IMG/VR virus record: IMGVR_UViG_3300018486_000049
Span: 1 to 39,903 of that record
DNA: 39,903 nt
Source of the DNA: a virus
Lineage: Duplodnaviria; Heunggongvirae; Uroviricota; Caudoviricetes
Reading direction: 5' to 3' (one strand)
Shown here: in pieces, positions 17,664-39,029 of the stretch
Layout: every line of letters begins with the position of its first letter
How positions within the stretch are numbered: the first letter of the stretch is position 1
The notes under the pieces: model-generated
The model's input: only the letters and a program-made list of their open reading frames with translations
What the model was told of the DNA's origin: nothing
Database searches by the model: none
Translations under genes and position numbers: made by a program

Positions 17664-19430
17664 ATGAACACCACACTGACACCCGCAGATCTCGATCCCC
17701 GTCGGCAGGCCATGCTGCTGTACTTTCAGGGATACCGCGTAGCCCGCATTGCTGAAATGCTGGGCGAGAAAGTTGCAACCGTTCACAGCTGGAAAAAACG
17801 CGACAAGTGGGGTGACTATGGGCCGCTGGATCAGATGCAGCTCACCACCGCCGCACGCTACTGCCAGCTCATTATGAAGGAGCACAAAGAAGGGAAAGAT
17901 TTCAAAGAGATTGACCTGCTGGCGCGCCAGTCTGAGCGCCACGCGCGGATCGGCAAGTTTAACAATGGCGGCAACGAAGCCGACTTAAACCCTAACGTCG
18001 CCAACCGCAATAAAGGCCCACGCCGTCAGCCGGAAAAGAATGTTTTCACCGATGAGCAGATTGAGAAGCTGGAAGAAATCTTCCATTCCTCCATGTTCAA
18101 CTACCAGCGCCACTGGTGGGAAGCCGGAAAAACCAACCGCATCCGCAACCTGCTGAAGTCACGCCAGATCGGCGCGACCTTCTATTTTGCCCGTGAAGCC
18201 CTGATTGACGCCCTGCTTACCGGACGTAACCAGATTTTCCTTTCTGCCAGTAAGGCTCAGGCCCACGTCTTTAAACAATACATCATCGACTTCGCCAAAG
18301 AAGTCGAGGTGGAGCTAAAAGGCGATCCGATGGTGCTTCCTAACGGAGCCACGCTTTACTTCCTCGGCACCAATGCCCGCACGGCCCAGAGTTATCACGG
18401 CAACCTGTATCTGGATGAATATTTCTGGATACCGAAATTCCAGGAGCTGCGCAAAGTGGCTTCCGGGATGGCTATTCACAAAAAATGGCGACAAACCTAT
18501 TTTTCCACGCCATCCAGCCTGACACACAGTGCTTATCCGTTCTGGTCCGGTGCGCTGTTCAACCGTGGACGCAACAAAGCCGACAAGGTGGACATCGACC
18601 TGTCCCACAGCAATCTGGCCCCCGGCCTGCTGTGCGCAGACGGGCAATACCGCCAGATAGTCACCGTGGAAGATGCGGTGCGCGGCGGCTGTAACCTGTT
18701 CGACCTCGACCAGCTACGCATGGAGTACAGCCCGGACGAATACCAGAACCTGCTGATGTGCGAGTTCGTGGACGATCTCGCGTCCGTGTTCCCGCTCAGC
18801 GAACTGCAGGCGTGCATGGTGGACAGTTGGGAAGTCTGGACCGACTTTCATGCACTGGCCCTGCGCCCGTTTGGCTGGCGCGAGGTGTGGATCGGTTATG
18901 ACCCGGCAAAAGGTACGCAGAACGGCGACAGCGCCGGATGCGTGGTGGTGGCACCGCCAGCCGTGCCAGGCGGTAAGTTTCGCATTCTTGAGCGTCACCA
19001 GTGGCGCGGGATGGACTTCCGCGCCCAGGCTGACGCCATCAAAAAACTGACCGAACAGTACAACGTGACCTATATCGGCATCGACTCGACAGGTGTCGGT
19101 CACGGGGTTTACGAGAACGTGAAAGCGTTCTTTCCTGCCGTCCGGGAGTTTGTCTACAACCCCAACGTTAAAAACGCCCTGGTACTCAAAGCCTACGACA
19201 TTATCAGTCACCGTCGTCTGGAGTTTGACGCCGGACACACCGACATAGCGCAGTCATTTATGGCAATCCGTCGCGCCACCACCGCCAGTGGCAACCGCCC
19301 GACCTATGAAGCCAGCCGCAGCGAAGAAGCCAGCCACGCCGATCTGGCCTGGGCAACGATGCACGCACTGTTTAACGAACCGCTGCAGGGCGAGTCCGCC
19401 AATACCAGCAATATTGTGGAGATTTTTTGA
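17664..19430 (+). CDS. P: Terminase large (ATPase) subunit gpP
   Basis: 588 aa, divergent from O, followed by the portal gene with a 4 nt overlap. Confidence 0.9.
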   Translation: MNTTLTPADLDPRRQAMLLYFQGYRVARIAEMLGEKVATVHSWKKRDKWGDYGPLDQMQLTTAARYCQLIMKEHKEGKDFKEIDLLARQSERHARIGKFNNGGNEADLNPNVANRNKGPRRQPEKNVFTDEQIEKLEEIFHSSMFNYQRHWWEAGKTNRIRNLLKSRQIGATFYFAREALIDALLTGRNQIFLSASKAQAHVFKQYIIDFAKEVEVELKGDPMVLPNGATLYFLGTNARTAQSYHGNLYLDEYFWIPKFQELRKVASGMAIHKKWRQTYFSTPSSLTHSAYPFWSGALFNRGRNKADKVDIDLSHSNLAPGLLCADGQYRQIVTVEDAVRGGCNLFDLDQLRMEYSPDEYQNLLMCEFVDDLASVFPLSELQACMVDSWEVWTDFHALALRPFGWREVWIGYDPAKGTQNGDSAGCVVVAPPAVPGGKFRILERHQWRGMDFRAQADAIKKLTEQYNVTYIGIDSTGVGHGVYENVKAFFPAVREFVYNPNVKNALVLKAYDIISHRRLEFDAGHTDIAQSFMAIRRATTASGNRPTYEASRSEEASHADLAWATMHALFNEPLQGESANTSNIVEIF

Positions 19431-20470
19431 TGGGAAAGAGTAAGAAAAACCGCGCTGCGGCGACGAATCAGCTCAAGCATAAAAGCCAAACTTCAGCCGA
19501 AGCATTCAGCTTCGGTGATCCCATTCCAGTACTTGACCGCCGCGAACTGCTGGACTATGTGGAATGCGTACAGACGGATCGCTGGTATGAGCCACCCGTA
19601 AGTTTTGACGGACTGGCGCGAACATTCCGCGCCGCCGTTCACCACAGCTCACCGATTGCAGTAAAGTGCAACATTCTGACCAGCACCTATATCCCTCACC
19701 CGCTGCTCAGCCAGCAGGCTTTTTCGCGTTTTGTGCAGGACTATCTGGTATTTGGTAACGCCTACCTGGAGAAACGCACGAACCGATTCGGTGAAGTTAT
19801 CGCCCTTGAGCCTGCGCTGGCAAAATACACCCGACGCGGGTTAGACCTGGATACCTACTGGTTTGTGCAATACGGTATGACAACCCAGCCGTATCAGTTC
19901 ACGAAAGGCAGCATTTTTCATCTAATGGAACCGGATATTAATCAGGAGATCTACGGCCTGCCCGGTTATCTTTCTGCCATTCCGTCTGCCCTGCTCAACG
20001 AGTCCGCCACGCTGTTCCGTCGAAAGTATTACATTAACGGCAGTCATGCAGGCTTCATCATGTACATGACCGATGCCGCGCAAAACCAGGAGGATGTGAA
20101 CAACCTCCGCAATGCGATGAAAAGCGCCAAAGGACCAGGTAACTTCCGCAATCTGTTTATGTACTCGCCTAACGGCAAAAAGGACGGGCTTCAGATCATC
20201 CCGTTGTCAGAAGTCGCGGCGAAGGATGAGTTTCTGAATATCAAGAACGTGAGCCGGGACGACATGATGGCAGCACACCGAGTGCCGCCGCAGATGATGG
20301 GGATTATGCCTAATAATGTAGGGGGGTTTGGGGATGTGGAGAAAGCCAGCCGGGTATTTGTTCGGAATGAACTGATGCCTTTACAAAAACGCATTGCCGA
20401 AATTAATGAATGGTTAGATGAAGAGGTAGTCAAATTTGAATATTATGGCTTAGAAAATAATCAGTCATAA
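19427..20470 (+). CDS. Q: Portal protein gpQ
   Basis: 347 aa, P2 P-Q arrangement reading toward the cos region. Confidence 0.9.
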   Translation: MMGKSKKNRAAATNQLKHKSQTSAEAFSFGDPIPVLDRRELLDYVECVQTDRWYEPPVSFDGLARTFRAAVHHSSPIAVKCNILTSTYIPHPLLSQQAFSRFVQDYLVFGNAYLEKRTNRFGEVIALEPALAKYTRRGLDLDTYWFVQYGMTTQPYQFTKGSIFHLMEPDINQEIYGLPGYLSAIPSALLNESATLFRRKYYINGSHAGFIMYMTDAAQNQEDVNNLRNAMKSAKGPGNFRNLFMYSPNGKKDGLQIIPLSEVAAKDEFLNIKNVSRDDMMAAHRVPPQMMGIMPNNVGGFGDVEKASRVFVRNELMPLQKRIAEINEWLDEEVVKFEYYGLENNQS

Positions 20471-20477
20471 AAAAGAA

Positions 20478-20508
20478 GTGAACAAGTTGAAATTATCAGC
20501 TTGTTCAC
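20478..20508. terminator. Candidate bidirectional hairpin terminator between convergent genes
   Basis: 9 bp stem GTGAACAAG / CTTGTTCAC with 13 nt loop, 8 nt after the Q stop. Confidence 0.45.
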
Positions 20509-20525
20509 TATTCTCTGTATTATCT

Positions 20526-20795
20526 CTACTGCATCCGTCCGGGTAAATCGCTTTCATTGCGTAAACGCCAAGCTAACTGTTCACGATCCCAAACTATATC
20601 GTCTTTGCTAGCCTTTCTAAAATTTGCTAGCACAGTACTGCTTATAGCGTAATTACCATTCTCATTAGTTTTGATGAACTCGTCCCCAAAGTCATTGATT
20701 AGAAATTCAACAACCTCGGACTGATACAACACACCATTAGAACGAGTGGTATTAACCATCCAGTCAACTATTTTTATCAGAGAATCATTCATCAT
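20526..20795 (-). CDS. Hypothetical small protein (about 89 aa)
   Basis: ORF in the AT-rich region between Q and the cos region; start chosen at MMNDS to limit overlap; no motif recognised. Confidence 0.45.
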   Translation of the reverse strand: MMNDSLIKIVDWMVNTTRSNGVLYQSEVVEFLINDFGDEFIKTNENGNYAISSTVLANFRKASKDDIVWDREQLAWRLRNESDLPGRMQ

Positions 20796-20994
20796 CACTC
20801 TCAGCTTTTGGAACAAATAAAACTAGAGTATCTTCATGAAAAACTCCGCGCTGGTTCTTAGCACCAATAAACCACGTACAAACTGCCATTGTAGCCGATT
20901 GGTAGTGATCAATTACCATGATTGGACCATGTCCTGTTGCATGTTTTACTTTCTGGCCCGGTGTATATTTTGCCACTCTCACGTCTCCTTTCAT
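20785..20994 (-). CDS. DUF2158-like small protein (YodC-like pattern)
   Basis: 69 aa with the G..VK...G.GP.MVI....C.WF pattern I associate with DUF2158. Confidence 0.5.
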   Translation of the reverse strand: MKGDVRVAKYTPGQKVKHATGHGPIMVIDHYQSATMAVCTWFIGAKNQRGVFHEDTLVLFVPKAESDDE

Positions 20995-21061
20995 GTGTAA
21001 GTTATCAATTTCAGAATATATCTACATTAATTGCAAGTAAACATGTTTGCGCGCGCTCGTA

Positions 21062-21074
21062 TCCCCGCCACGCC
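21062..21074. other. Candidate cos (cohesive end) site region
   Basis: Reverse complement GGCGTGGCGGGGA resembles the start of the P2/186 cohesive end as I recall it; lies in the non-coding gap between Q-side and A-side genes. Confidence 0.3.
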
Positions 21075-21453
21075 TGCCCGCTTTATGCAGTGGTTTTCAT
21101 GCACATGCATGACATGAGCAAAAGCCCGCCAGTTCTGGCGGATCTGAGCAAAGACGATCCTCAATCGATCATGCGATTTCATGCAGCATAGTCATGCACT
21201 GTCAAGGAAGTGAAAATCCGTATCTGAATGGCCACTTGAAAAACGGATCATACGGGTTTACAAAGATGAATGTTCGCTGTGAACGGGAAGCGGAAGTTAA
21301 CTTTCAGATAACATAATCCATATGCACGAGAACCTCTAAAATAGAATGGGACACCTAAGCGGGGTACTTACAACGATTCTTTCCATATTCACAGTTAACA
21401 CTCTGTTTGGCGTATTTTTATTCAAATAGCAAACACCAATAAAAGGAGTTTCC

Positions 21454-21789
21454 ATGAACAATATTCCCCCTATACCACAGTTAGGAATTTATGTCTCAAA
21501 AATCGATCCCACCCTACGTATCACTGTAACCGATGTTGATATTGTTGATGGTGAGGATGATTCTCCTGATGATGAATTGTTTTATTTAGTCCACTGGATC
21601 GAGGGGGAAGATGAAAGTGATATGACAGCAATGGGATTTGAGCTAGACCCAGTAGAGTGGCAGGCTTTCGTTGAATCTGAGCAATTAGTGTTTGAGCGTG
21701 ATCCGTACATGGATTCAATCCCCGAAAATTCAAACTTGGCAAAGATTCGGGATTTTCTCATGAAGACTAAACAGAATGATCATTCGTAA
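21454..21789 (+). CDS. Hypothetical strongly acidic protein (111 aa)
   Basis: Good ATG with GGAG upstream; Asp/Glu-rich runs (DGEDDSPDDE, EGEDESD); only plus-strand gene in this region. Confidence 0.55.
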   Translation: MNNIPPIPQLGIYVSKIDPTLRITVTDVDIVDGEDDSPDDELFYLVHWIEGEDESDMTAMGFELDPVEWQAFVESEQLVFERDPYMDSIPENSNLAKIRDFLMKTKQNDHS

Positions 21790-21981: not shown

Positions 21982-22215
21982 TTAATGCAGCCAGCTGTCG
22001 TCCTCCCACACCTTCTGCATAATTTTCATCACTTGTTTTCTTTCTTCATCCAGTTGCAGTCCGGTTAGTTCCACACCGTTAGAGCTACCTTTGCGAATGC
22101 GAATTACCGTTTTGGGATACAGGGGGCGCAGATTGCGGTAAAGCTCGGATTCAAGTGCGTCCAAGGTAGACTGGCTAATCTTCTGCTCTTTATCGATCAT
22201 TATTTCAATGCGCAT
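21982..22215 (-). CDS. DinI-like protein (C-terminal, DinI-like part of a Tum-type antirepressor)
   Basis: MRIEIMIDKEQ...VWEDDSWLH resembles DinI as recalled; SD GAGGTGA before the ATG at 22215; the frame is also open upstream to 22287. Confidence 0.7.
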   Translation of the reverse strand: MRIEIMIDKEQKISQSTLDALESELYRNLRPLYPKTVIRIRKGSSNGVELTGLQLDEERKQVMKIMQKVWEDDSWLH

Positions 22216-22225
22216 AAAAGTCACC

Positions 22226-22414
22226 TCAGCTGATGACATCCATTGAGCGGTTGTATTCGTGGCTTCTGATTTTTGCCATGAGTTCATCAGTCAATTCAGA
22301 AACCCACTGCAGAGCCAGCCCCTTCTCTTCATCACTACACTCACTAGCCGCTACAAGCTTAAGAAAAAAATCAATGCGCTGGAGCTTCAAAGACTCCAAA
22401 AAATAGTCCTGCAT
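22226..22414 (-). CDS. Small protein (62 aa), possible N-terminal part of a split Tum-like antirepressor
   Basis: GGAGG SD before the ATG; overlaps the upstream-open DinI frame out of frame; LexA box in its promoter. Confidence 0.5.
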   Translation of the reverse strand: MQDYFLESLKLQRIDFFLKLVAASECSDEEKGLALQWVSELTDELMAKIRSHEYNRSMDVIS

Positions 22415-22566: not shown

Positions 22567-24981
22567 TTAATACAGGTTCCGCCACTTATCATCTTCCTTC
22601 AGACGCTGGTTCCGATAGAAGATACGCAGGCCTGCTCCTGACGGAATACTGCCGCCGCGAAGGAGCAAATCGACTTCTTTCTCGCTGCCATCAAATCCCC
22701 TGGACTTCAGTTCATAGACGAGCTGCTGTCGCTGATGGTCTGTAATTCGCTGTTTGTAGTCTTTACGCCGTTTCGGTTTCACCTGGCGTAACCTTGCAGC
22801 CAGTTCCCGGCGCTCTTTTTTGCTCATACTGTGCAGGTAATCGTGCAACTCCTTGTCATTCATACGGGTAATATCCGTTCTGGAGTCCCCATCAGCTGAT
22901 TTGTCTTTCCCTTGTTGGTTCAAATTTTCAGCAAAGGGACAGTTATTGCCACGAGTCCAAGGGGCGCAAGCGCCCTGGTCGGCTACCGCCTCCTGAACGT
23001 CAACGGCCTTACGAACCATTTTCCACTTCACTGCATGAGTGCAGATCTTGCCCTCTGCAATGGGTGACCAGATGCCATAAATACGAATGCCGTGATCGCC
23101 ATAGGCGGTCGGCTCTTCGTTGATTTCATAAGCGGTTCTGATAAGGTGATATTTACGGGGAACCAGTACGCCGCCCTGCTTCATGATGTAGGTGGCAAAA
23201 CAACCAGCATCAGCAGCAGCCAGGATGGCATCAAGGCGCGGGTCATCCAGTATCGGCGCACCTGCTTTTTTGTCACCCTGTTGCCTTGCCGCCTGACCAG
23301 CCAGCAAGCGAAGTTCACGGTAAGCCTGACGTCCCGGAATACCAAAGAAGCGGAACTGCTGAACACGATGCAGAGACGCCCAGGCATTAACGTATTCGGC
23401 GTTATCACGCAGGGATTTACCCGTTTCCTTGCTGATCTCGCCAGCCAGACCACGCCCGTCAATGTTCTTACTGATGTATTTCGCGATGTAGCTTGTCGGT
23501 GTTCCTTTGCGCGGGTTAATCAGCTCAGACTTAAAGCGTGGCCCCGTGTTGTTGCCCAGCTCCTCGCGGTCTACACGGATGGCAAACTTACGCAGTAATG
23601 CAGTGATGGCGCGGCGGTCTTTTTTACGCATGAAGCACATGAGATGCCAGTGCACAGTACCGTCATGGTGCGGCTCAGCCACCCGCACGCCATACCAGCG
23701 CAACCCGGTTTTGTGCATTGCCTTACGAAATGCAGCAAACATGCCGACCAGATAATCGCTACTTTGTCTTACCGTCGCATTTGTCCAGGTCGGGTTGGGT
23801 CTGCCGTTGTTGAGCGTGGAATGGAAACGTGACGGACAGGTGATAGTGTAGAAAACGGCGCAGTCACCGCGCATTTCCGCGATAAGCTCCAGACCTTTAA
23901 CACAGGCCATCATCTCATTGCGGCGATGCGCAGGGTTGCTGCTGCTGGCGTTTACCACATCCTCCATGTCCAGCGTGTCGCCGTCTTCGTTCACCAGTTC
24001 ATGAGAACGGAAAAACTCCAGCGACTTACGGCGCTGCTCACGTTTATGCATCACGGCTTCATAGCTGACATAGGGAGATGCTTTTTTGCTGACCAGGCAG
24101 ACAGCACGCAACTGCTCTTCCCGCCATTCGCAACGCATCTTCCATAATTTCCGATACCACCAGTCGGCGCACAACATACGCGCCAGCGAACCCGGAATGA
24201 GTTCATAGGGCACGGGTTTACGGCGGTTTCTTTTCCGACGGAGTTGCTCAAACGCAGGTGGGATGACATCCAGACGCAGGGTTTCCGCCGCCACCTTTTC
24301 CCATGTCTTGCGGATTTCTTCTGGCTTAACGTCATCGGTGGCATACAAATCGCCACAAGCTGCATCAAGGCACATGCTCATATGCGCAGCTACCAGGGTG
24401 GACAGGCGTTTCACCTGATCCTGACTCATTTCAGGCAGGATCAGCAGGCCCTCCATCCCTTGATGGCTTGCCATAAAACGGAAAGAAGCAGACAGCTGAC
24501 TGTCACGTACACAATCCAGTCGCTCCAGACATGGCTTAATCGTCTCACGCAAATAGCGGGAATAAGCCTTTGGCCTGCCCAGGCTGCTGAAGTATTCGAT
24601 ACGTTGCATCAGCGGCTTGCTAATATGGGTGGGCTGGGCGCTGACGTCCGCCAGAATGACCATGTCCGGGTTAAAACGCTGCTGTTCATGCGCCAGCTTT
24701 GCCCGGCTAATGAGCTTATCCTGCTCCATTTCGCGCTGGACAGGATCACGAGATTCATTAAAGAAATAACGCTCCCAGACCTGCTCACTCAGTGCATCGC
24801 GGCGCAGCTGTTCCTGCTCATTATCGGCAGCGTACAGAGTGATCAGGTTTGAAAGTGCAGACTCCGGCGCAACTTCCGCCGGGTCCAGATAAGGGTTAAT
24901 GGCCTTTTTCGGGCCGTTCCATGAAAATGCTGCAGCGGCCTCGTTAAAGCCGCTAGAGTTGCTCATATCGTCATGACTCAT
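22567..24981 (-). CDS. A: Replication initiation protein gpA (rolling-circle HUH endonuclease family)
   Basis: 804 aa; HWH (HUH-like) motif followed by YIAKYISK tyrosine motif; P2 A position. Confidence 0.9.
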
Positions 24982-27974: not shown

Positions 27975-28916
27975 ATGTCAACTAATAAAATCACATTTCG
28001 CCATATTGAAGATCATCTGAAAGCCATGGTCATGCAGAATCGAGGAGGGCAAAAAGTCATTGAGAGAATACTCATGGCCTATGGTTTCAAATCACGCCAA
28101 GCATTCTGTAACCACCTTGGTATTTCACAAAGTACAATGGCTAACAGATATGCACGCGATACCTTCCCTGCTGATTGGGTTGTTATATGTTCAATGGAAA
28201 CTGGCGCATCAATCGAATGGTTAGCATTTGGTTTAGATGCTGAAGAAGGAGTGCCAGTTCCTTCGCCAGAACGGCATGCTGAAAAACAGTCTGCAGATGA
28301 ATTTTGCAATGAAGTTCACACCCCCACGATAAAGTTCGATAATGAAAACCACATGGATTTCACTCGAGGGGGTAAAGCAGCAATAGAGCGAATTGTTAAG
28401 GCTTACGGTTACAAAACGCGCCAAGCCTTAGCCGATCACCTTGGCATCTCAAAAAGCACATTAGCTACACGATACATGCGAGACATTTTTCCGGCAGACT
28501 GGATCATCCAATGCTGTTTAGAAACAGGAGTGTCTCTCGAGTGGTTATCTTTTGGTAAGGGGCATTCCAATCAAACAAAGCTAAGTGGGTTGCTTACATT
28601 AGACTGCTATGATCTACGTGACGGCAAACTTACTGATCAAAGAGAATTAATCGTTTCGAGCGAAATTTTACCTCAAAATTTAAAACATCCCTATATAGTT
28701 AATTCCGCAAATGATTCATATATCATTAGCAAAGAGGAGTATCTTAGCGATGGTCTATGGTTAGTATCTATTAACGGAGAATTTACTTTTAGAGACATAT
28801 TTAAACTTCCAAACAATCGCATCCGCGTTGAAAACACAAAATATAGCTTTGAATGCGATAAAGAAGATTTGGAATTTAATAATAAAGTTAAAGGAATAAT
28901 TAGAAAAAGGGTTTAA
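27975..28916 (+). CDS. cI: CI-like immunity repressor with tandemly duplicated N-terminal DNA-binding domain
   Basis: 313 aa; residues about 23-85 and 122-184 are an internal repeat (about 60 percent identical, IERI..AYG.K.RQA...HLGIS.ST.A.RY.RD.FPADW...C.ETG.S.EWL.FG); C-terminal domain SDGLWLVSINGEF...; divergent from Apl/Cox. Confidence 0.8.
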   Translation: MSTNKITFRHIEDHLKAMVMQNRGGQKVIERILMAYGFKSRQAFCNHLGISQSTMANRYARDTFPADWVVICSMETGASIEWLAFGLDAEEGVPVPSPERHAEKQSADEFCNEVHTPTIKFDNENHMDFTRGGKAAIERIVKAYGYKTRQALADHLGISKSTLATRYMRDIFPADWIIQCCLETGVSLEWLSFGKGHSNQTKLSGLLTLDCYDLRDGKLTDQRELIVSSEILPQNLKHPYIVNSANDSYIISKEEYLSDGLWLVSINGEFTFRDIFKLPNNRIRVENTKYSFECDKEDLEFNNKVKGIIRKRV

Positions 28917-28918
28917 CA

Positions 28919-29968
28919 ATGAGCTTTACGAAAACTATTGAATTTGCAAACTATACCTTAAATTTTGGAGAGGACAAAGTTCTCTTAGATGCTTTTGATT
29001 GCATTGTTTTTCCTTCATTTTTCGCACAAAAATACGTTAGAAAATTTAAAGATACAGAATATTTCTTTACTGACACAAAAATTATTACGTTAGATACTAC
29101 AGATTCAGATTTTATTGGTCCTATAGTTCCAACAATTGCATTGTGTGGCCGCATTATAAAAAAGACCATATTTAAACGAGATCAAATATTTCAAGATGGT
29201 CAATTAATTCGAGATCACAGGACGCTAGAAAGTCACCCCAGCTCTATTTTTATTCTTATGCTTAATGAGCACAGATTAATGCTTTGCAAAGAGGTTTCTG
29301 GAGCCCCTACCCTAGAAGAATTTGAAAATACTAGCAAGTATTGCCTTGCACAGCGATATAATTCTTTTGTGGATTACGAAGTAAAAAAAAATAAAAGAAT
29401 TAGAAAGAAAAAATCATACATTGATCGACTGTATAAAAAAGATATTTATCGTAAACTAGGAGCCCCCAAATTACGGGTTACCCCCTTAACAGACCCAAGA
29501 TCATTGAGCAATTTTGTTGAACTCTTTTCTGTTGTTAATAGATTATCAATTGAGTTATTACCAACAAATAGTGAAAATATATCTCTTGATGGCTTCTGGA
29601 GGAAATTTGAACAAGAAAAAGAAGAACTTAATAGTAGTAAAGCTCAATTAGTATACACAAATAAAAATGAAGATGGTTTAAATTCTGATGCCGTCATTCA
29701 AAAAACAACAAGTGCAACCCGAATGGCCAACTCTAAAGTAATTATCAGTGGTAAAGATGAACACGGAGCAAGGCTATCAGGGAATAATGATAGTTTTACT
29801 CTAAAAGCATCAAGGCCACAACTTAGTTCTGATTTGGAAAGAGCTGCTCAAGAGGCGTATTCTGCATTCACAGAATTAAAGGATGAAGGAAATATTATTA
29901 TTCCAGAACGTGAAGATTATACTAAAATTTTTTCCAAGTTAACATCAATAATTTCTAGGTGGCTATAG
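28919..29968 (+). CDS. Cargo protein 1 of repressor-linked cassette, function unknown (349 aa, soluble)
   Basis: ATG 2 nt after the repressor stop; AT-rich; basic patch KKNKRIRKKKSYIDRLYKKDIYRK; no catalytic motif recognised. Confidence 0.7.
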   Translation: MSFTKTIEFANYTLNFGEDKVLLDAFDCIVFPSFFAQKYVRKFKDTEYFFTDTKIITLDTTDSDFIGPIVPTIALCGRIIKKTIFKRDQIFQDGQLIRDHRTLESHPSSIFILMLNEHRLMLCKEVSGAPTLEEFENTSKYCLAQRYNSFVDYEVKKNKRIRKKKSYIDRLYKKDIYRKLGAPKLRVTPLTDPRSLSNFVELFSVVNRLSIELLPTNSENISLDGFWRKFEQEKEELNSSKAQLVYTNKNEDGLNSDAVIQKTTSATRMANSKVIISGKDEHGARLSGNNDSFTLKASRPQLSSDLERAAQEAYSAFTELKDEGNIIIPEREDYTKIFSKLTSIISRWL

Positions 29969-29969
29969 T

Positions 29970-30575
29970 ATGAAATATACATTCAACCCAGAAGATCTGA
30001 CCAAAGAGCGATCTTTGCATGATGTTTACAAATTAACTAAAAAAATAAAGGTCAATTCATTTGACTTTTATTTCACATTATTGTTAGTGATATTATTATC
30101 TATTAATGCTTTTTGTCTATCTTCATCACCAGAGTTAATTTCATCTATTAGACAATGGACACCTTTAGTATTCGGATTCACTACAACAACATTAGGTTTT
30201 TTAATTACTGGATTTACAATATTTGCAACCATAAATAAACCTGAACTTTTCCTTTCATTAATGGAGTATAAGCATCCATTATACGGGATAAGTTACTTAA
30301 AATATGTTTATGGTGTATTTATGAGAGTATTTATATATTTCATATTTTGGTCTGTTATCTATCTTTTAGTCCTTCTTTTCGGGCAAGAAAATGGATTGGC
30401 TACAAAATTACTCAGAGCCTTAATGTTTTCTCATTGCACTAAAGTTGTTGGAGTTCAAATACTATATATACTCGTAGGAAGCAGTGCAGTGTTCCTTGTA
30501 TTAACTTTAAAAACTTTCCTGTTCAATATTTATGCTATGTTAATGCAATCTCTACGCTGGGAAGTAGAAAGATAA
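29970..30575 (+). CDS. Cargo protein 2, small multi-pass membrane protein (201 aa)
   Basis: ATG 1 nt after gene 1 stop with AGGTGG SD; about four hydrophobic helices; AT-rich. Confidence 0.7.
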   Translation: MKYTFNPEDLTKERSLHDVYKLTKKIKVNSFDFYFTLLLVILLSINAFCLSSSPELISSIRQWTPLVFGFTTTTLGFLITGFTIFATINKPELFLSLMEYKHPLYGISYLKYVYGVFMRVFIYFIFWSVIYLLVLLFGQENGLATKLLRALMFSHCTKVVGVQILYILVGSSAVFLVLTLKTFLFNIYAMLMQSLRWEVER

Positions 30576-32191: not shown

Positions 32192-33292
32192 TCATTCCAT
32201 TTCGAAATCATTAATCTTCACTTCAAGCTCCAGACTGGTCGTAAAACCGTTATCCGGATTGACAGTATGCGTCAGGGTGGTAATAGTCCATTCCGCATCA
32301 TCTATCGGCTGTTTAAAGCCTCTGACTTTCACTGGCATTTCCGTGTAGAGATCCGCCCGACCTTCTGCCAGTTGTAGCGAGAATGACGCAACGCCACGTT
32401 GCAGGCGTTCCCACTGCATTTTCGCCGCCCGTTCGGCGTTGCTCCGGTTGGCATAGGTGCGATTAAGTACCAGCACGTTTTCATCTGTACCCACCAGGTA
32501 ATCGCCCTGCTTCGCTTCCGGCTCTTTCTTCTGCTTCTTAGTCCTGCGCTTACGCTTCACCGTGGTGCTTTCTTTCTTCGCGGGTTCGCGGGTATGCAAC
32601 CAGCTGGCAATTACGCCCGTGTAGGCTCCGCGATCTGCCAGGGTAAAGCGGTGACTGTCGCCGTCCTTACGTGTGATAGTGATAACCGGTAGTGGTTTAC
32701 CGCTGGCGCTTTTACCCTGTCCCTGCCGGATGAATAACAGATTGCCATTTTTCACCGACGCAATAGCACCGTACTGGCGCGCCAGCCGCATCAGAAAACT
32801 GCCGTCACTCTCATTGGTCTGGTCTATATGCTCCACAGGTTTATCCGACAGGTCTTCACCCAATGCCATCTTCAGTTTGTGCCGCGCAGCTATTTCCTTC
32901 ACCACTTCCCCAACGGTGGTCTTGTGCCACGATTTTTCACGGCGGGTATTCAGGGTTTCACGAAAATCAGCACTTCGCGCCCGGATAGTCAGGCGGTCCG
33001 GTGCGCCAGTGTGTTCAATCTCGTCCACCGTGAATGCTCCTTTCGGGAAAAGCGACTGCCCCTTCCAGCCCAACGCCAGCGTAATGACCGCACCACGGCG
33101 CGGCAGCACGATTTTTCCGTCGGCGTCGTCCAGCTCCAGATCAAGCTGGTCCGCTTCAAAGCCCCGATTGTCCGTCAGCGTCAGACTCATCAGGCGGTTA
33201 TCCAGCACAGTGGTGATATCCTTACCCTCAATACTGATGCTGAATGCCGGAGTTTTGTTGCCTTTGCTAAGCAGTTCAGAGCTGAAATTCAC
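32192..33292 (-). CDS. D: Tail protein D (gpD), second diverged copy
   Basis: 366 aa, start overlaps the U stop, precedes ogr as in P2. Confidence 0.85.
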   Translation of the reverse strand: MNFSSELLSKGNKTPAFSISIEGKDITTVLDNRLMSLTLTDNRGFEADQLDLELDDADGKIVLPRRGAVITLALGWKGQSLFPKGAFTVDEIEHTGAPDRLTIRARSADFRETLNTRREKSWHKTTVGEVVKEIAARHKLKMALGEDLSDKPVEHIDQTNESDGSFLMRLARQYGAIASVKNGNLLFIRQGQGKSASGKPLPVITITRKDGDSHRFTLADRGAYTGVIASWLHTREPAKKESTTVKRKRRTKKQKKEPEAKQGDYLVGTDENVLVLNRTYANRSNAERAAKMQWERLQRGVASFSLQLAEGRADLYTEMPVKVRGFKQPIDDAEWTITTLTHTVNPDNGFTTSLELEVKINDFEME

Positions 33293-33774
33293 GACAGCAG
33301 CCCTCCCACCGTTTTACTGATATCGCTTAAGGCAGACGTTGTCGTATCCTGCAAATTATTCAGCTGCGCACTGAGATCACCGAACATATCGGACAGGGAT
33401 TCATCCACCCGTTTGAGCGACAGGGTGAACTCAATCCGGCGCGGCATACCATCGCGGAAAAACTCCGTTTTAGTCTGATTCAGTCCCTCAATCACATACA
33501 TGCCGTAAATCGTGCCGCTGCCTTCAATCAGGGGCCATGCTTTCCCCTGTTCTGCCATCTGCTCCAGTGCCAGCAACGACAGCCTGCCGCCTGTTATTTC
33601 CGGCATAAGAACACCGGAAAGCGTCAGCATGTCGTTTTCCGGTCCCAGAAACTGCGTAGACGGACGTCGGTTTACCCGACTGTTTGCCGCATGTCGCCAG
33701 CTGCGTTGATACTGCAGTTCCTGATACGGAACGGTGCGCAGCATAAACACGTACAATCCCAGCACCATCATCAT
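33289..33774 (-). CDS. U: Tail protein U (gpU), second copy
   Basis: 161 aa, homologous but clearly not identical to 425-889. Confidence 0.85.
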   Translation of the reverse strand: MMMVLGLYVFMLRTVPYQELQYQRSWRHAANSRVNRRPSTQFLGPENDMLTLSGVLMPEITGGRLSLLALEQMAEQGKAWPLIEGSGTIYGMYVIEGLNQTKTEFFRDGMPRRIEFTLSLKRVDESLSDMFGDLSAQLNNLQDTTTSALSDISKTVGGLLS

Positions 33775-36700
33775 GCGTCGTATCCCCCCTGATCGCTGTA
33801 GTTACTCCTGGCTTTTGCCTTCAGCCTGCGTTCACGTTCATCAAGCTGGCGTGCCACCTCCCGCGCAATATCCTGCGCACTTTGTCCTGGCTGCGTCTGA
33901 ATGATGATCTGCGTCGGTGCCTCAATCCGTTGAACGAGCGGCACAGTGGCTGCGCGACTCACAATTGCTTCTCCACCTTTCGCGGGAAGTGCCAAAGGGT
34001 GCAACGGTGGAAGCTCTGCTGGCGCGGCAGCAACGCCCATCATTCCGGCAACAACGGCAGCCAGTGCAGCTGTATTTCTCCGGCTGGTCACATTTGCCGG
34101 GCCGTTAACAATTTCCGGCCCGTTTTCACCGACGATGCCAAACTGCCCGCGCGGGATATACCCGCCGCTGTCATACATCCCCGCAAAGCCATATCCCCAT
34201 GATGGAAAACCACCCGATGGCATCATCACTTTACCGTCTGCATTCACCGTCGCAGGTTGCTGACGCGTCACGCTTTCCGGCAGTTTTGCCTTTGCGGCCT
34301 CTTTACTGACAATGCCGAGCTTCTCCAGCAACCAGGAAACGCCGGATTTCAGGGAGTCCAGCGGATGCATGACCATATTCAGCCCTTCCGCCAGTGCCTC
34401 CCCGAATCGCCGCCCCATTGCCGCTGCGCTCTGCAGTTCGGCAGAGGTCGACTTAACGGGCGTCAGCAGATCAGTAAACCAGCCCCACAGCGCCTGCACT
34501 TTGTCGCCAATCCACTGGAACACGGGCTTAAGCGGTTCGAACGCTGCACTGATGGGACCTGCCGCCGCTTTGAATCCTTCCACCACGCCACCGAGAAATG
34601 CGGTGATGGGTTGCCAGTATTTCCAGACAACCAGCGCCACGCCCGCCAGTGCAGTAACCACAAGACCTATCGGACTGAGCAGAGCACCTAACAGACCAGA
34701 TATGGCATACAGGGCAACGCGCAGCATCGCCAGTGGACCAGATGCCAGTACTCGCAGCACCGTGCCTGCGGCGGCCAGTCCACCGCGCAGTACCGCCAGA
34801 GGATTCATAAACATCACAGCAACAGCACGTAAACCGGATAATCCAGACCGCAAAAGTGCAACCGGCGCACCTGCTACAGTTTTCAGGACATTTCCCGTCA
34901 GTGATGCCGTGCGGCGCAAAGACGACAACGGCGCAGTAAGTAAACCTGCGGCGTTGCCCGATGAAGCAAGCCCGCGTCGCAGCAGTGCCAGTGGTGCGCC
35001 AGCCAGCCAGGACAACGCGCTGCTGGTTCGAGTTACTGCTGCCGTAACGGAAGATAACGTTTTGATACCCAACACAGAGAATCCCAGACGGATCACTGCC
35101 AGCGGCCCCAGCACTGCAGCCAGCGCCACCGCTAAGGTGCCGAGGCCGACGGTAACCGCAGCCACAACAGCCGATGCTTTCATCAGTGTGCCTGTCAGTT
35201 CCGGGTTAGCTTCCACCCAGCGACGCAACGCCCCCGTGACGCTTTTCACCGTGTACAGAATATCCATCAGCGGCTGGCGCAGCGTTTCGCCCAGGCTGCT
35301 GAAGGTGTTCTGCGCTCCGGTTTTGACCAGCAACCACTGCGCAGAAAGTGAATCCTTGTTAATGTCGGATTCTTTCTGCATGGAGCCGAGCGCATCATTG
35401 CCCGCTGTCAGTTTTAACTGACGCTGCAGTTCCGGCAGGTTGTTTGCCAGTTTCGCCGCGTCATCGCCAAACTCTTTACCAAACAACATAGTCATGGCAG
35501 ACAGGCGCTTGTCCTGCGGCAGCGCGTTTACCTTCTCCAGCACGCGCTGGATGGTTCCCATCGCATCCTTCGTCATCTGCTTTTCAATCACTTCAGGATT
35601 GAGTTTCAGCAGATTCATCCCTTCAAAGAAACTCTTGCTTTGCATGGTGGCAATGGACAATTCACGCACCATCGCGTTTGCTGCACTGGCTGCAACCTCT
35701 GGCGCAGCGCCCAGTGTCAGGAAGGTGGAACCCAGCGCCGCCGCTTTACGATAATCCAGACGGTCAGCCACACCGCCCAGACGTTGCATCACATCAATGA
35801 TGTCTGCCCCTTTCGACATGGCGTTATCATCCAGATAGTTCAGCGCATCACCGAGCTGTTCAATATTGCGGGTGGGGATTTTGTAGAGCTGGGCGATTTT
35901 CCCCAGACTTTCTGACAGTTCATCCGCTGGCAGCTCAAAGGCTGTTGCCGCCTTTGCTGCCGTACTGGCGAAGGCCAGCAGGTCACGTTTCTGATCTTCC
36001 CAGCTGTCGTCAGGGTTTGCGACGTTCATGCGCGCACCACCTTCAACCAGTGCAGCGAAGTCCACCGCACCGTTTTCCATCGGCAACTGTTCGCTGGCAG
36101 CCTTGATGGCATCCTGCATTTCATAAAAACGTGCAGTGCGGTTGCCATTATCGTCACGCAAACCATTGACCTGCTTTGCCACACCTTTCATGGCATCTTC
36201 CATGCTGGTATAGCTTTTTACTGCCGCCATCACTGGCGCACCCATTGCCAGCCCTGCAGCCGTGGTGGTGGCTCCGGCACCTGCAATACGATCACGCACC
36301 TCCAGCGAACGGGCATAACTGGCACGCGCTGCATTCATCCTGCGCTGAGCTTCCCCCAGTCGCTTCAGCCGCGCCTCCTGTTTCGAAAGTTCCTGGTTAT
36401 AACGTGATGTTTCACGGGCTAAACGGGCAGTTGCTCCCGCATCGTCTTTCGCAGAAATTCCCGCCCGGTACAGTTCAGCACGCACAAGCGCCGTCTGCTG
36501 CTGCAGCTTTTTCTGGCGTTCTTCCAGGCGCTGAACAGCCAGCCGTTGACGGCCCAGAGCAACAACCTGACGTTGCGAAGGCGGCCCCATCGCTCCCAGT
36601 TCCTGACTGAGCAAATTTGCACGCTGGCGGGCATAGTTCAGCCTGTCGCCTAATTTCTGATTTTCTGCCTGCAGCTTTCGGAAGCTGTCCAGACTGCTCC

Positions 36701-36848
36701 CGGCCTGATCAAGCTGCTTTATTGCATCGCGGGATTTTTTGACAGCAGCAGCCAGTTCTCTTGAACTGGCCTGCGCAGATCGAAATGGGCGGGTGAGCTT
36801 GTCAACCGCATTAAGAATGACCTGCAGACGCAGGTTGTTATCACTCAT
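33771..36848 (-). CDS. T: Tail tape measure protein (gpT), second copy, 1025 aa
   Basis: Coiled-coil N-terminus, hydrophobic repeats, 216 aa longer than the first copy. Confidence 0.9.
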   Translation of the reverse strand: MSDNNLRLQVILNAVDKLTRPFRSAQASSRELAAAVKKSRDAIKQLDQAGSSLDSFRKLQAENQKLGDRLNYARQRANLLSQELGAMGPPSQRQVVALGRQRLAVQRLEERQKKLQQQTALVRAELYRAGISAKDDAGATARLARETSRYNQELSKQEARLKRLGEAQRRMNAARASYARSLEVRDRIAGAGATTTAAGLAMGAPVMAAVKSYTSMEDAMKGVAKQVNGLRDDNGNRTARFYEMQDAIKAASEQLPMENGAVDFAALVEGGARMNVANPDDSWEDQKRDLLAFASTAAKAATAFELPADELSESLGKIAQLYKIPTRNIEQLGDALNYLDDNAMSKGADIIDVMQRLGGVADRLDYRKAAALGSTFLTLGAAPEVAASAANAMVRELSIATMQSKSFFEGMNLLKLNPEVIEKQMTKDAMGTIQRVLEKVNALPQDKRLSAMTMLFGKEFGDDAAKLANNLPELQRQLKLTAGNDALGSMQKESDINKDSLSAQWLLVKTGAQNTFSSLGETLRQPLMDILYTVKSVTGALRRWVEANPELTGTLMKASAVVAAVTVGLGTLAVALAAVLGPLAVIRLGFSVLGIKTLSSVTAAVTRTSSALSWLAGAPLALLRRGLASSGNAAGLLTAPLSSLRRTASLTGNVLKTVAGAPVALLRSGLSGLRAVAVMFMNPLAVLRGGLAAAGTVLRVLASGPLAMLRVALYAISGLLGALLSPIGLVVTALAGVALVVWKYWQPITAFLGGVVEGFKAAAGPISAAFEPLKPVFQWIGDKVQALWGWFTDLLTPVKSTSAELQSAAAMGRRFGEALAEGLNMVMHPLDSLKSGVSWLLEKLGIVSKEAAKAKLPESVTRQQPATVNADGKVMMPSGGFPSWGYGFAGMYDSGGYIPRGQFGIVGENGPEIVNGPANVTSRRNTAALAAVVAGMMGVAAAPAELPPLHPLALPAKGGEAIVSRAATVPLVQRIEAPTQIIIQTQPGQSAQDIAREVARQLDERERRLKAKARSNYSDQGGYDA

Positions 36849-37277
36849 CGTTGGCCCCGCTTCTCTGAATCGCTTTATACCGCCATTCCAGCACTTCGGT
36901 CAGCGGCATAACGTCAGTAACGGATGGCGGCCAGTGAAAAATGGTGGCGATATCTGCCACCAGATCGTCAACCGTCAGGCTGTCGGTAAACCGGCAAGCA
37001 CCGACTTCTTCAACAAAAAAGTGACAACCTCAACCGACATGGCAGTGAGATCTGCCGGGTCCATCTCTGCAATTTCCTGTGCAGTCAGTGCCGGACTGGA
37101 GATGCGGGGGATCACGGTCATCATCGCGTTTACATCCATATCCATAATGGCCTGCAGGCGTGTACCGCGCAGCGCACCGGACTGCGGTTTACGCAGCACA
37201 ATTTCGGTGATTTCTGTTTTACCGCGCTTGATGGGGGTATCCAGTTGAATGGTCTTTTCAGTCTGCTTATCGCTCAT
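36841..37277 (-). CDS. E+E-prime -1 frameshift product, second copy
   Basis: Plus-strand CAAAAAA at 37014-37020; -1 frame open to a TGA at 36841-36843 overlapping the T start. Confidence 0.6.
36975..37277 (-). CDS. E: Tail assembly chaperone gpE, second copy
   Basis: 100 aa, ends just after a TTTTTTG slippery site. Confidence 0.8.
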   Translation of the reverse strand: MSDKQTEKTIQLDTPIKRGKTEITEIVLRKPQSGALRGTRLQAIMDMDVNAMMTVIPRISSPALTAQEIAEMDPADLTAMSVEVVTFLLKKSVLAGLPTA

Positions 37278-37331
37278 TTTGCTGTCCTGTCAATTGGGTT
37301 CTGGCGCGGTATCCCGCGCCGTTCAGATATA

Positions 37332-37847
37332 TCAGAGGCCGAGGGCGTTGCGGTGCGCTTCCATCAGGTCCACACCGTCCACAATTTCCACCATGTTGAT
37401 AAGGTCCACTTCATAGAGCACCTCACCATTGATGGTCAGCTTCGCGTAGCTGTTGGTACTGGTCACTTTGGTGGTGTTGCTTTCGCCCGTCTTCCACTCG
37501 CCGGAATCCACTTCTTTGTGACGTCCACGCACGACAAGCTCCACGGCCTGCACTTCCCCGGTATCGTCACGCTGAATAGAGCCGGTAAAGCGCAGCTGGA
37601 TGCCATCCACCGTGGCTTTACCCATCTGTTTAAACAGCAGCAATTCAGTACCACCAATGGAAAATTCTGTGTCCAGCGCACTGTCATCAAGCCCCAGATC
37701 CACATCCACCGCACCCGGCATTCCGCCGCCGCGATACTTCTCATATTTGCGGGTAAATTTCGGCAGCGTCAGCGACTCAACGATCCCCTGCCAGTTGTTC
37801 CCGTCGTTAAACAGGTTCAGGTGTTTTAATTTGCGTGGTAATGCCAT
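37332..37847 (-). CDS. FII: Tail tube protein FII, second copy
   Basis: 171 aa, homologous to 3819-4337. Confidence 0.9.
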   Translation of the reverse strand: MALPRKLKHLNLFNDGNNWQGIVESLTLPKFTRKYEKYRGGGMPGAVDVDLGLDDSALDTEFSIGGTELLLFKQMGKATVDGIQLRFTGSIQRDDTGEVQAVELVVRGRHKEVDSGEWKTGESNTTKVTSTNSYAKLTINGEVLYEVDLINMVEIVDGVDLMEAHRNALGL

Positions 37848-37856
37848 GTTGTCCCC

Positions 37857-39029
37857 TTACGCGCTGACCTGGCTGGCGAAATTCACCAGGTACTGATCGG
37901 TGATGCGCTGACGCAGCATCAGGTTTTCAAGTGGCGGCACTGGCGTGTAGTCGTAGTCGATGGTGAGTTTTCCGGCTTTCAGCGTGTCTTTGTCGTTCAC
38001 CGACTCATCCAGCCAGCAATCACCACCAATGAGATAGCCCTGACTGACCAGGCTGCGCATTTTGGCGCGGATACCTTCGATAATGTCGCGGGCCAGCGAC
38101 GGGTTAAGCGGTTTATCCACCGCCCACATGTGTGCTTCTGCCATCGTGTCCATCAGCACCTGCGCCGTGCGGGTGTAGTTTTCGAAGGCAAAGAGCGGGT
38201 CATCACTCAGGCAGCGGGAACCCCAGAAGCGGAAACCGTCTTTACGCACAAGCGTGGTGACGTCGTTCTGGTTCAGCAGACCTGCATCGGTTGCCGGGTC
38301 CTGCAGATCCCAGAACACATCTGCAGAAATTCCGGTGACACCGTTCACGCCCACGTTGGACAGGCTTTTGTGCCATCCGGTCTGCTCGTCAATTTTGGCG
38401 CGCAGACCAAGCGCACGGGCGGTGGCATATGCCGTTGCTTCGGCATTCAGCACCGTGTCCCAGCCAGTAAAGTCAGGCCAGATCAGCATCCCTTCGCGCT
38501 GGCTGAAGTTTTCGCGGTAAGTGATCGCCTCCTGCACTGTCTTGCAGCCATACGCTGACAGGTAAGCAAATCCACGCAGGCTTTGCGCCACGCTCAGCAA
38601 CTCAGTAGCTACCGCCTTGGTGTCGTGGCCTGGCACGCCGAGAATGCGCGGTTTAACGCCGAGCTGTGACTGGGCAGATAACAGGGCTTTCATACCTGTT
38701 TTTTTACCTTCAGCAGTCACTGCGCCGATGATATTGGTCGTGGTTTCGTCTTCCGTTTCACCCTGCGGCACACGCACAACAATGGTCACGGGTTTTGCCT
38801 GGTCAGCGATGGCATCCAGCGAACGGGCCAGAGTACCTGACTCACCCGCTTTACCGCTGGCAGTCAGCACATCAGTGATCAGCACGGGTTTATTAAGAGG
38901 AAACATTTTTGCATCGGCATCATCGCCCGTGCAGACCATACCCACGATGGCGGTGCTCACCGTGGTAATAGATCGGGTGCCTTCGTTGACTTCAACAACG
39001 CGCACCCCGTGGTGGTAATCCTGAGCCAT
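37857..39029 (-). CDS. FI: Tail sheath protein FI, second copy
   Basis: 390 aa, homologous to 4350-5537. Confidence 0.9.

Follow-up and report, generated by a model that had tools for sequence, protein, structure and literature searches.

A rare DUF2158-DUF6953 gene pair beside cos in a 186-like prophage: hotspot cargo and a possible conflict module

Introduction

The closest described counterparts of the locus studied here are the cargo genes of P2-like prophages. Rousset et al. (2022) have defined the gpA-gpQ cos-proximal hotspot of these phages (PMC9122126), and many unknown genes of such hotspots have been predicted or shown to be antiviral (PMC13586616). In this work, we have analysed a two-gene cassette in a viral DNA of 39,903 nucleotides (nt) (IMG/VR record IMGVR_UViG_3300018486_000049, Caudoviricetes; the whole stretch is called the window below). 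Its gene 1 encodes a small protein that we assign to the DUF2158 family, and its gene 2 encodes a DUF6953 protein. The cassette occupies the same slot as old and tin of P2 and the cargo catalogued by Rousset et al., and like these genes it is AT-rich, self-contained, swappable and rare among near-identical prophages. On the other hand, it lies on the portal side of cos, whereas P2 old and tin lie on the A side. Its two proteins, each of less than 100 amino acids (aa) and without an enzymatic domain, also show no homology with old, tin or the catalogued hotspot systems. Actually, this exact locus (WP_024169233 and WP_096997786) is listed in Table S5 of PMC9122126, where it is entered only as 'hypothetical'. 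In the same table, another DUF2158 protein, WP_001547483, has 17 mentions in E. coli P2-type hotspots, alongside other 'hypothetical' partners.

At the protein level, gene 1 can be compared with YodC of E. coli and Salmonella and with other solo DUF2158 proteins, which are of the same Pfam family and share the pattern G-D-x-V...G-G-P...W-F-x-G-x-K. In E. coli, YodC is under sigma-S control (PMC5437024), and its gene stands alone in the chromosome with no DUF6953 gene next to it, whereas the window protein falls in a DUF6953-linked subfamily; unlike YodC, it has a one-residue insertion (GHGP) and a Pfam score below the family cutoff.

We have found that the cassette is a rare passenger of the hotspot and that its two families are kept together across phyla. 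Overall, we tentatively propose, at somewhat less than an even chance, that the cassette is a prophage-expressed conflict module, which would serve superinfection exclusion or anti-phage defence by binding.

Results

The cassette as mobile cargo of the cos-proximal hotspot

The window contains a 186/P2-like prophage in the orientation opposite to the standard P2 map. The features that define the locus are the following.

17664-19430, plus strand: terminase large subunit
19427-20470, plus strand: portal gene, gpQ/W homologue (Pfam Phage_portal, E 3e-18; RefSeq annotation of near-identical loci)
20526-20795, minus strand: gene 2, DUF6953 protein (predicted winged helix), 89 aa from the ATG at 20795, stop 20526-20528
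20785-20976 (63 aa, GTG) or 20785-20994 (69 aa, ATG), minus strand: gene 1, small DUF2158-family protein, stop 20785-20787
21057-21075: cos cohesive end, 19 nt, where the minus strand reads GGCGTGGCGGGGATACGAG; aligned with annotated cosL
22567-24981, minus strand: gpA homologue, 804 aa, assigned by position from the RefSeq 'replication endonuclease' of near-identical loci

The portal gene is convergent with the cassette and forms one edge of the hotspot. Beside the gpA homologue, the Dam methylase and CII genes are likewise on the minus strand, and a 186-type CI and an integrase follow beyond them on the plus strand. A sequence-only reading of the window had placed a two-gene module between the portal gene and the cos region, and this location is correct, with the portal stop at 20470 and cos at 21057-21075. 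The cos positions align with the annotated cosL of P2 (NC_001895, 1-19) and of 186 (NC_001317, 1-19), and the cassette start is predicted to lie ~63-81 nt from the cos end in virion DNA. The distance from cos to the portal stop is 586 nt here, compared with ~170 nt of non-coding DNA in P2 and 186; that is, the cassette fills or replaces the non-coding spacer of these phages. With a size of ~575 bp, it is among the smallest units in the hotspot.

The same reading had described an AT-rich island, and the base composition agrees with this: the GC (guanine plus cytosine) fraction is 0.34-0.42 over 20400-20999, compared with 0.50-0.63 in the terminase and portal genes. The fall in GC begins within the last ~100 nt of the portal gene (window 20300-20470), and the portal C-terminus is unlike that of the Klebsiella copy described below. 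Together, the two observations suggest that recombination joined the cassette inside the portal 3' end.

Of 5426 complete E. coli genomes, ~1260 (about 1263) have the adjacent cos block, but the cassette is present in only 8. All the eight copies are at least 99.4% identical and always stand between portal and cos. The pair is also found in 186-like prophages of Klebsiella, at the same slot, with 86-88% protein identity and a gene 1/gene 2 overlap of 8 nt. The synteny comparison among P2-like prophages called for by the sequence-only reading thus has the E. coli and Klebsiella copies at one site. Five IMG/VR contigs contain an identical DUF6953 protein, each with a small partner open reading frame (ORF) just upstream. 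A tblastn search with both proteins against 50,697 GenBank phage records gave no match, and in a megablast of the region against phages the cos block alone was matched.

Across cos, the genes also vary among the cassette-bearing strains. In the window, the far side of cos contains the following genes.

21454-21789, plus strand: 111-aa protein, phrog_17127, with no Pfam match
21982-22414, minus strand: DinI-like gene and a 62-aa phrog_698 gene

At the first far-side position, other strains have a 141-aa hypothetical gene (strain 300709), 260-aa and 66-aa genes (COL60J) or a DUF4145 gene (KL53).

The cassette thus shows what defines the hotspot (PMC9122126): it lies between gpA and the gpQ portal gene, next to cos, at a site that is variable among related prophages. 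The accessory slot named by the sequence-only reading is therefore a published one. We conclude that the cassette is mobile cargo of a 186-like prophage and not a core function and, as rare cargo of the gpA-gpQ hotspot, it is therefore not morphogenetic. The reading had offered essential morphogenetic components as the outcome that would speak against it, and the presence of the cassette in 8 of ~1260 genomes with the cos block is clearly at odds with such a role.

Two conserved families and their pairing

Against Pfam DUF2158 (PF09926), the gene 1 protein obtains 19.5 bits (E 8e-4) and stays below the gathering cutoff of 22.3. On an independent profile, it reaches 39.1 bits (E 2e-14). This profile was made from 22 DUF6953-linked DUF2158 proteins of other phyla, three of which were checked against Pfam (25-65 bits). 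The protein also matches phrog_3261 (E 1e-7), and the alignment has the invariant columns G, G-P, W-F, G and K, i.e., the pattern G...G-P...W-F-x-G-x-K. By these profile matches, the gene 1 protein is a divergent member of a DUF2158 subfamily. A word-indexed homologue search with it returned near-identical sequences only. The earlier description as a 69-aa DUF2158-like protein is therefore right in the homology, although the Pfam search it had proposed misses the cutoff and a 63-aa product from a GTG start is likelier.

The gene 2 protein, which had been called an unknown 89-aa protein, belongs to a named family: it matches Pfam DUF6953 (PF22266) with 84.5 bits (E 5.9e-24, profile positions 4-73 of 74), compared with a cutoff of 27. 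It also matches phrog_10782, and identical proteins are named 'DUF6953 family protein' in RefSeq. In Pfam, NCBIfam and PADLOC, DUF2158 and DUF6953 are the only matches, with no known toxin-antitoxin (TA) or defence family and no enzyme or toxin family for either protein. An exhaustive HMMER search at E ≤1e-3 has returned 639 representative clusters of DUF6953.

We have calculated dN/dS, the ratio of non-synonymous to synonymous rates, against the Klebsiella copy, and have obtained 0.047 for gene 1 and 0.077 for gene 2, with dS ~1. By these ratios, both genes are under strong purifying selection. That the two are chance ORFs was ruled out by these values and the profile matches.

To sample DUF6953 genes in GTDB and IMG/VR, a degenerate DNA pattern for N-G-N-x-A-I-x3-V-L-x2-F-R was used, which covers only the members that keep this motif. 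In the GTDB species genomes, the scan gave 56 loci, 51 of them with true DUF6953 genes. A DUF2158 ORF lies immediately upstream on the same strand in 21 of the 51 (41%). The paired loci include Acidobacteriota, Alphaproteobacteria, Gammaproteobacteria, Nitrosomonas, Verrucomicrobiota, Planctomycetota, Atribacterota and Neomarinimicrobiota, and in other phyla the position of the DUF2158 stop relative to the start of the DUF6953 domain varies between 17 nt inside the domain and 31 nt upstream. Among eight distant homologues, three, all at metagenome loci, have a DUF2158 gene (Pfam, 25-65 bits) directly upstream. In IMG/VR, all four complete non-enterobacterial DUF6953 copies are paired with DUF2158. 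Among the IMG/VR matches listed, DUF6953 is the commonest downstream neighbour of DUF2158 (15 of 123 genes in 119 loci), and the DUF6953-paired copies are the best-scoring DUF2158 subfamily. The two families also occur as a natural fusion, P0145, in which DUF2158 (39.9 bits) precedes DUF6953 (91.3 bits). The tight pairing seen in the window is thus kept across phyla. Judging from this sequence conservation, the pair is an ancient conserved functional unit that is not obligatory for either family. Where DUF6953 stands without DUF2158, another small gene is often found only a few nucleotides upstream.

Gene structure and expression signals

The signals of the cassette are given below.

20477-20509: hairpin terminator with a 14-bp stem, between the convergent portal gene and cassette
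20785-20795, minus strand: gene 1/gene 2 overlap, 11 nt, ATGATGAATGA
20985-20990, minus strand: Shine-Dalgarno sequence AAGGAG, 8 nt 5' of the gene 1 GTG, kept in the Klebsiella and E. coli copies
20995-21045, minus strand: cassette-specific upstream region; homology to cassette-free prophages resumes only at ~21045-21047
21027-21040: imperfect palindrome TTACTTGCAATTAA, centred on a -35-like TTGCAA

For gene 1, the true start is probably the GTG at 20976 (63 aa), because AAGGAG stands 8 nt upstream, RefSeq gives 192 nt/63 aa in identical E. coli copies, and the family alignments begin there. The longest ORF of gene 2 is 20526-20816 on the minus strand (96 aa from a TTG); with the 89-aa reading from the ATG, the overlap of about 11 nt that had been noted earlier is exact. 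This overlap suggests translational coupling of the two genes.

The hairpin terminator, which had been said to bound the module, has a free energy of -20.2 kcal/mol (z -4.1), and none of 200 shuffled sequences is as stable. In minus-strand RNA, the hairpin is followed by a U-run (CUUCUUUUUU), and it occupies the place of tQ/tW in P2 and 186. At the other end, the region 20995-21045 is nearly identical in the Klebsiella copy. We infer that this cassette-specific region contains the promoter. Two candidates were picked manually, TTGCAA-17-TGAAAT and TTTACT-15-TATATT, and both are weak. An Rfam scan of 20300-21500 gave one chance sub-threshold snoRNA match, with no sign of an RNA antitoxin or other non-coding RNA. 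Just upstream of cos on the minus strand, at 21125-21142, we have also observed a terminator-like GC-rich hairpin, TCCGCCAGAACTGGCGGG, followed by CTTTTGC, which would insulate the cassette from transcription of the gpA/DinI side.

Overall, the two ORFs are a self-contained bicistronic cassette with its own upstream region, Shine-Dalgarno sequence, overlap and intrinsic terminator. The small genes are adjacent and co-oriented with a single downstream terminator, and would be co-transcribed.

Such an arrangement is also found in type II TA operons, in the order of MazEF/PemIK or of HigBA/HicAB, which the cassette resembles in its small overlapping genes with probable translational coupling, its carriage by mobile elements and its patchy phylogenetic spread. 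We therefore have to weigh a type II TA system, acting in addiction or abortively; the sequence-only reading had held a TA or an exclusion function possible but unproven. DUF6953 would be the toxin, neutralised by a small, beta-rich DUF2158 antitoxin whose C-terminal tail is charged; in the reverse order, as in HigBA/HicAB, the toxin would come from the small upstream gene, and the winged helix-turn-helix (wHTH) protein would be the antitoxin and autorepressor. The co-oriented overlapping genes with their own terminator and the cross-phylum spread on prophages and integrative elements fit this idea, as do the tails of the partner proteins, which are mildly acidic (mean net charge -1), and the different small upstream genes of DUF2158-less DUF6953 loci, which resemble TA mix-and-match. 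Against it, neither protein resembles TA families in Pfam, NCBIfam or PADLOC, and no toxin family or fold is recognisable, with DUF6953 modelled as a plain winged helix. E. coli KL53 (L092) provides a natural knockout of the upstream partner: IS1B lies inside the DUF2158-type gene at the window-equivalent 20864-20873, with the same 10 nt at both junctions, and the DUF6953 gene beside it is intact and identical. This argues mildly against a strict antitoxin-toxin dependency, though a polar loss of expression could reconcile the two. Solo DUF2158 genes, including YodC, are also common, and some DUF6953 genes lack a partner close upstream, which is awkward for either toxin assignment. A TA system is, in our estimation, rather unlikely.

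Separately, we have considered the acidic tail of the partner as a DNA mimic that masks DUF6953. This idea was set aside, with a mean tail charge of only -1 and several tails neutral or basic.

Predicted fold and fusions of DUF6953

An AlphaFold2 model of DUF6953 on an alignment of 69 homologues has a predicted local distance difference test score (pLDDT) of 93.8; the single-sequence run, with a pLDDT of 61, was unusable. In the model, the topology is that of a winged helix, H1-(b)-H2-H3-b-b, with structural matches to solved wHTH domains, and DUF6953 can confidently be predicted to have this fold. An extra beta-hairpin between H2 and H3 carries the conserved motif N-x-N-G-N-x-A-I. Charge is unevenly spread over the domain in the 69 homologues, with ~+2 each on H3 and on the wing and an acidic remainder. 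R60, K61, R71, R77, R79 and R87 are basic in 67-97% of the homologues. A globally basic DUF6953 protein in the window was ruled out, as its net charge is -4 and its pI 4.65, and it is basic only at H3 and the wing.

The top structural matches are the N-terminal wHTH domains of BrxR and CapW, the transcriptional regulators of defence systems (WYL-type, of BREX and CBASS). The likeness is at the fold level only, with 8-16% identity and scores typical of any winged helix. In addition, DUF6953 is without the WYL and WCX domains of BrxR and CapW, and has the extra H2-H3 beta-hairpin. Profile searches of the PDB sequences gave nothing significant for DUF2158 or DUF6953, and a Foldseek search of the DUF6953 model against viral structures (BFVD) gave no match at E ≤0.001.

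In addition to P0145, DUF6953 is found in other fusions. P0015 is a TIR_2-DUF6953 fusion (70 bits). In P0158, a weak HEPN_Swt1-like region with an R-x4-H motif (17.3 bits, with a threshold of 27.5) precedes DUF6953. Other long DUF6953 proteins have zinc ribbons or long acidic repeats. In every fusion with an N-terminal domain or extension, DUF6953 is C-terminal, which mirrors the gene order of the window; P0045, P0106 and P0129 have a C-terminal extension only. The proteins with long N-terminal acidic, repeat-rich regions form a subfamily of their own (P0070, P0080, P0091, P0104, P0108, P0124, P0137, P0139, P0140 and P0147), and in most of them the winged-helix domain is directly preceded by a conserved P-(E/P)-P-D-P-N-L-T motif.

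A small protein followed directly by a conserved HTH-type protein is the arrangement of acr-aca operons, and an anti-defence operon of this type would mean that the DUF2158 protein inhibits a defence of the host or a competitor, with DUF6953 as a wHTH autoregulator acting as repressor at the promoter of the cassette. In favour of this, viral contigs are rich in DUF2158 genes (at least 119 loci). The palindrome at 21027-21040, over the -35-like TTGCAA, is largely kept in Klebsiella and stands upstream as in acr-aca operons. The matches to BrxR and CapW also agree with a regulator. On the other hand, H3 and the wing keep their putative reading residues almost unchanged from phylum to phylum, which would be unexpected if each copy had its own operator. 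Unlike the hypervariable partners of such operons, the upstream gene comes from one conserved family in 41% of the loci. DUF6953 fusions, whether with a TIR effector-type domain, with acidic repeats, with zinc ribbons or, in one case, with a weak HEPN-like region, are contexts foreign to aca genes, and the slot itself is best known for defence rather than anti-defence genes (PMC9122126). We consider an acr-aca-type operon unlikely.

Genomic neighbourhoods of the pair

In viral contigs, the pair is also found at other positions. In contig L086, it is flanked by the integrase and a CI-like repressor, and in contig L089 it follows a major head gene in convergent orientation, much as it converges with the portal gene here. 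Both are moron-type positions. Among the IMG/VR matches listed, we have further observed DUF2158 genes directly upstream of a terminase-small-subunit-like protein with an N-terminal HTH in eight contigs, assigned by eye (L114, L126, L146, L164, L194, L198, L123 and L195). There the DUF2158 gene stands at the beginning of the packaging module, a placement reminiscent of the site next to cos in the window.

The 148 neighbour ORFs from 50 genomic loci are heterogeneous, with a minority related to mobility or defence; the matches include integrases, a resolvase, QatB/C/D, type I and type II restriction-modification, AbiU and AIPR. In Nitrosomonas (L044, 549-2243), the pair is preceded on the same strand, at a distance of 5 nt, by an AIPR (abortive-infection) gene. 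Nitrincola tibetensis (L028, 1058-4055) has a near-identical pair beside three large ORFs, which are probably the QatB/C/D matches. The metagenome loci have GmrSD (L018), Mrr and DUF4145 as neighbours.

These positions also bear on a plain regulatory moron, i.e., a wHTH factor with a small cofactor that modulates host or prophage expression, or packaging near cos, and has no role in conflict. The winged-helix fold would suit such a factor, and so would the place of the cassette 60-80 nt from cos, the eight DUF2158 genes upstream of terminase-small-like proteins, and the solo homologue YodC as a protein of a stress regulon. However, the cassette is absent from more than 99% of the related prophages that share cos and the packaging genes, and it is thus not needed for packaging or for the lysis-lysogeny decision. 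In addition, the pair moves among unrelated phages and chromosomal islands, and fusions of DUF6953 to TIR and HEPN-like regions exist. A purely regulatory role seems quite improbable to us.

Other features of the prophage

Some features outside the hotspot are listed here for completeness.

27975-28916: CI repressor ORF, 313 aa, with two separate Phage_CI_repr HTH stretches and a CI C-terminal domain
28919-30575: two consecutive ORFs (349 aa, 201 aa), flanked by the genes of the 186-type CI repressor and the integrase
32192-39029: second P2-like tail set (gpD hub, 1025-aa tape measure, sheath), directly after the integrase

A tape measure of the first prophage itself lies at 901-3330, and the two tail-gene sets suggest tandem or adjacent P2-like elements. 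A length of 313 aa seems long for a 186-type CI, and the ORF could reflect a duplication, a fusion or an over-long start call. The 349-aa and 201-aa ORFs have no Pfam or PADLOC match. They mark a second accessory slot of the same prophage and are a further candidate cargo cassette. In P2-like phages, defence genes have been described between integrase and primase (PMC13586616).

Discussion

Based on the above analyses, the conflict module that we tentatively prefer may be sketched as follows. The proteins of gene 1 and gene 2 would act as a complex, in which H3 and the wing of DUF6953, with their near-invariant Arg and Lys residues, may form a nucleic-acid-binding surface and the DUF2158 protein may be a partner, modulator or adaptor. 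DUF6953 would recognise a generic feature of a nucleic acid or protein rather than a specific promoter. Such a generic target is favoured because the H3 and wing residues are kept across phyla and because in other proteins the domain follows TIR or, in a single case, a weak HEPN-like region, which are partners of the conflict type. Expressed from the prophage, the module would provide exclusion or defence, possibly abortive, by binding or sequestration of its target and not by enzymatic attack.

A broader proposition is that DUF2158-DUF6953 constitutes an unrecognised, widespread two-protein system of non-enzymatic anti-phage activity or exclusion, with DUF6953 as a portable sensor or targeting domain that is wired elsewhere to TIR- or HEPN-type effectors. 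We regard this wider claim as doubtful.

Several observations weigh against a conflict module. Neither protein has a match in PADLOC-DB v2.0.0 at E up to 1. The pair is without a recognisable effector domain, and a small wHTH protein could be a mere transcription factor. About 59% of the sampled DUF6953 genes have no DUF2158 partner, and most of the phage DUF2158 genes listed have no DUF6953; given these frequent unpaired copies and the solo YodC, neither family is dedicated to the pairing. The TIR and HEPN-like fusions are each single cases among the 150 matches listed, and the HEPN match is below its threshold. Recognisable defence genes are among the three nearest ORFs in only ~10% of the 50 loci, so that the neighbour signal is suggestive and is too weak and poorly controlled for a demonstrated enrichment. 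A scan for the sigma-70 consensus found no promoter upstream of gene 1. The physical interaction, the nucleic-acid binding and the expression in the lysogen are all steps that we infer. Finally, in the literature searched we have found no mention of DUF6953, PF22266 or PF09926, and only incidental ones of DUF2158/yodC (the YodC annotation and one weak structural match). This agrees with the statement of the sequence-only reading that no function is known for the family.

By the same token, the cassette, the DUF2158-DUF6953 pairing and its fusions appear to be undescribed; P2-hotspot cargo as such is already known. The cos-proximal hotspot of P2-like phages has already been the source of several new defence systems, and much of its cargo is still annotated as 'hypothetical'. 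With a pair conserved across phyla and a natural fusion, the cassette is not an orphan, and two functionally unstudied DUFs become the subject of a hypothesis that can be tested cheaply. If it proves inactive, the cassette would be ordinary unexplained cargo. An active cassette would extend prophage-encoded immunity by a mechanism of a non-enzymatic type, and would give a function to DUF6953, with its 639 clusters, and to the DUF2158 subfamily linked with it.

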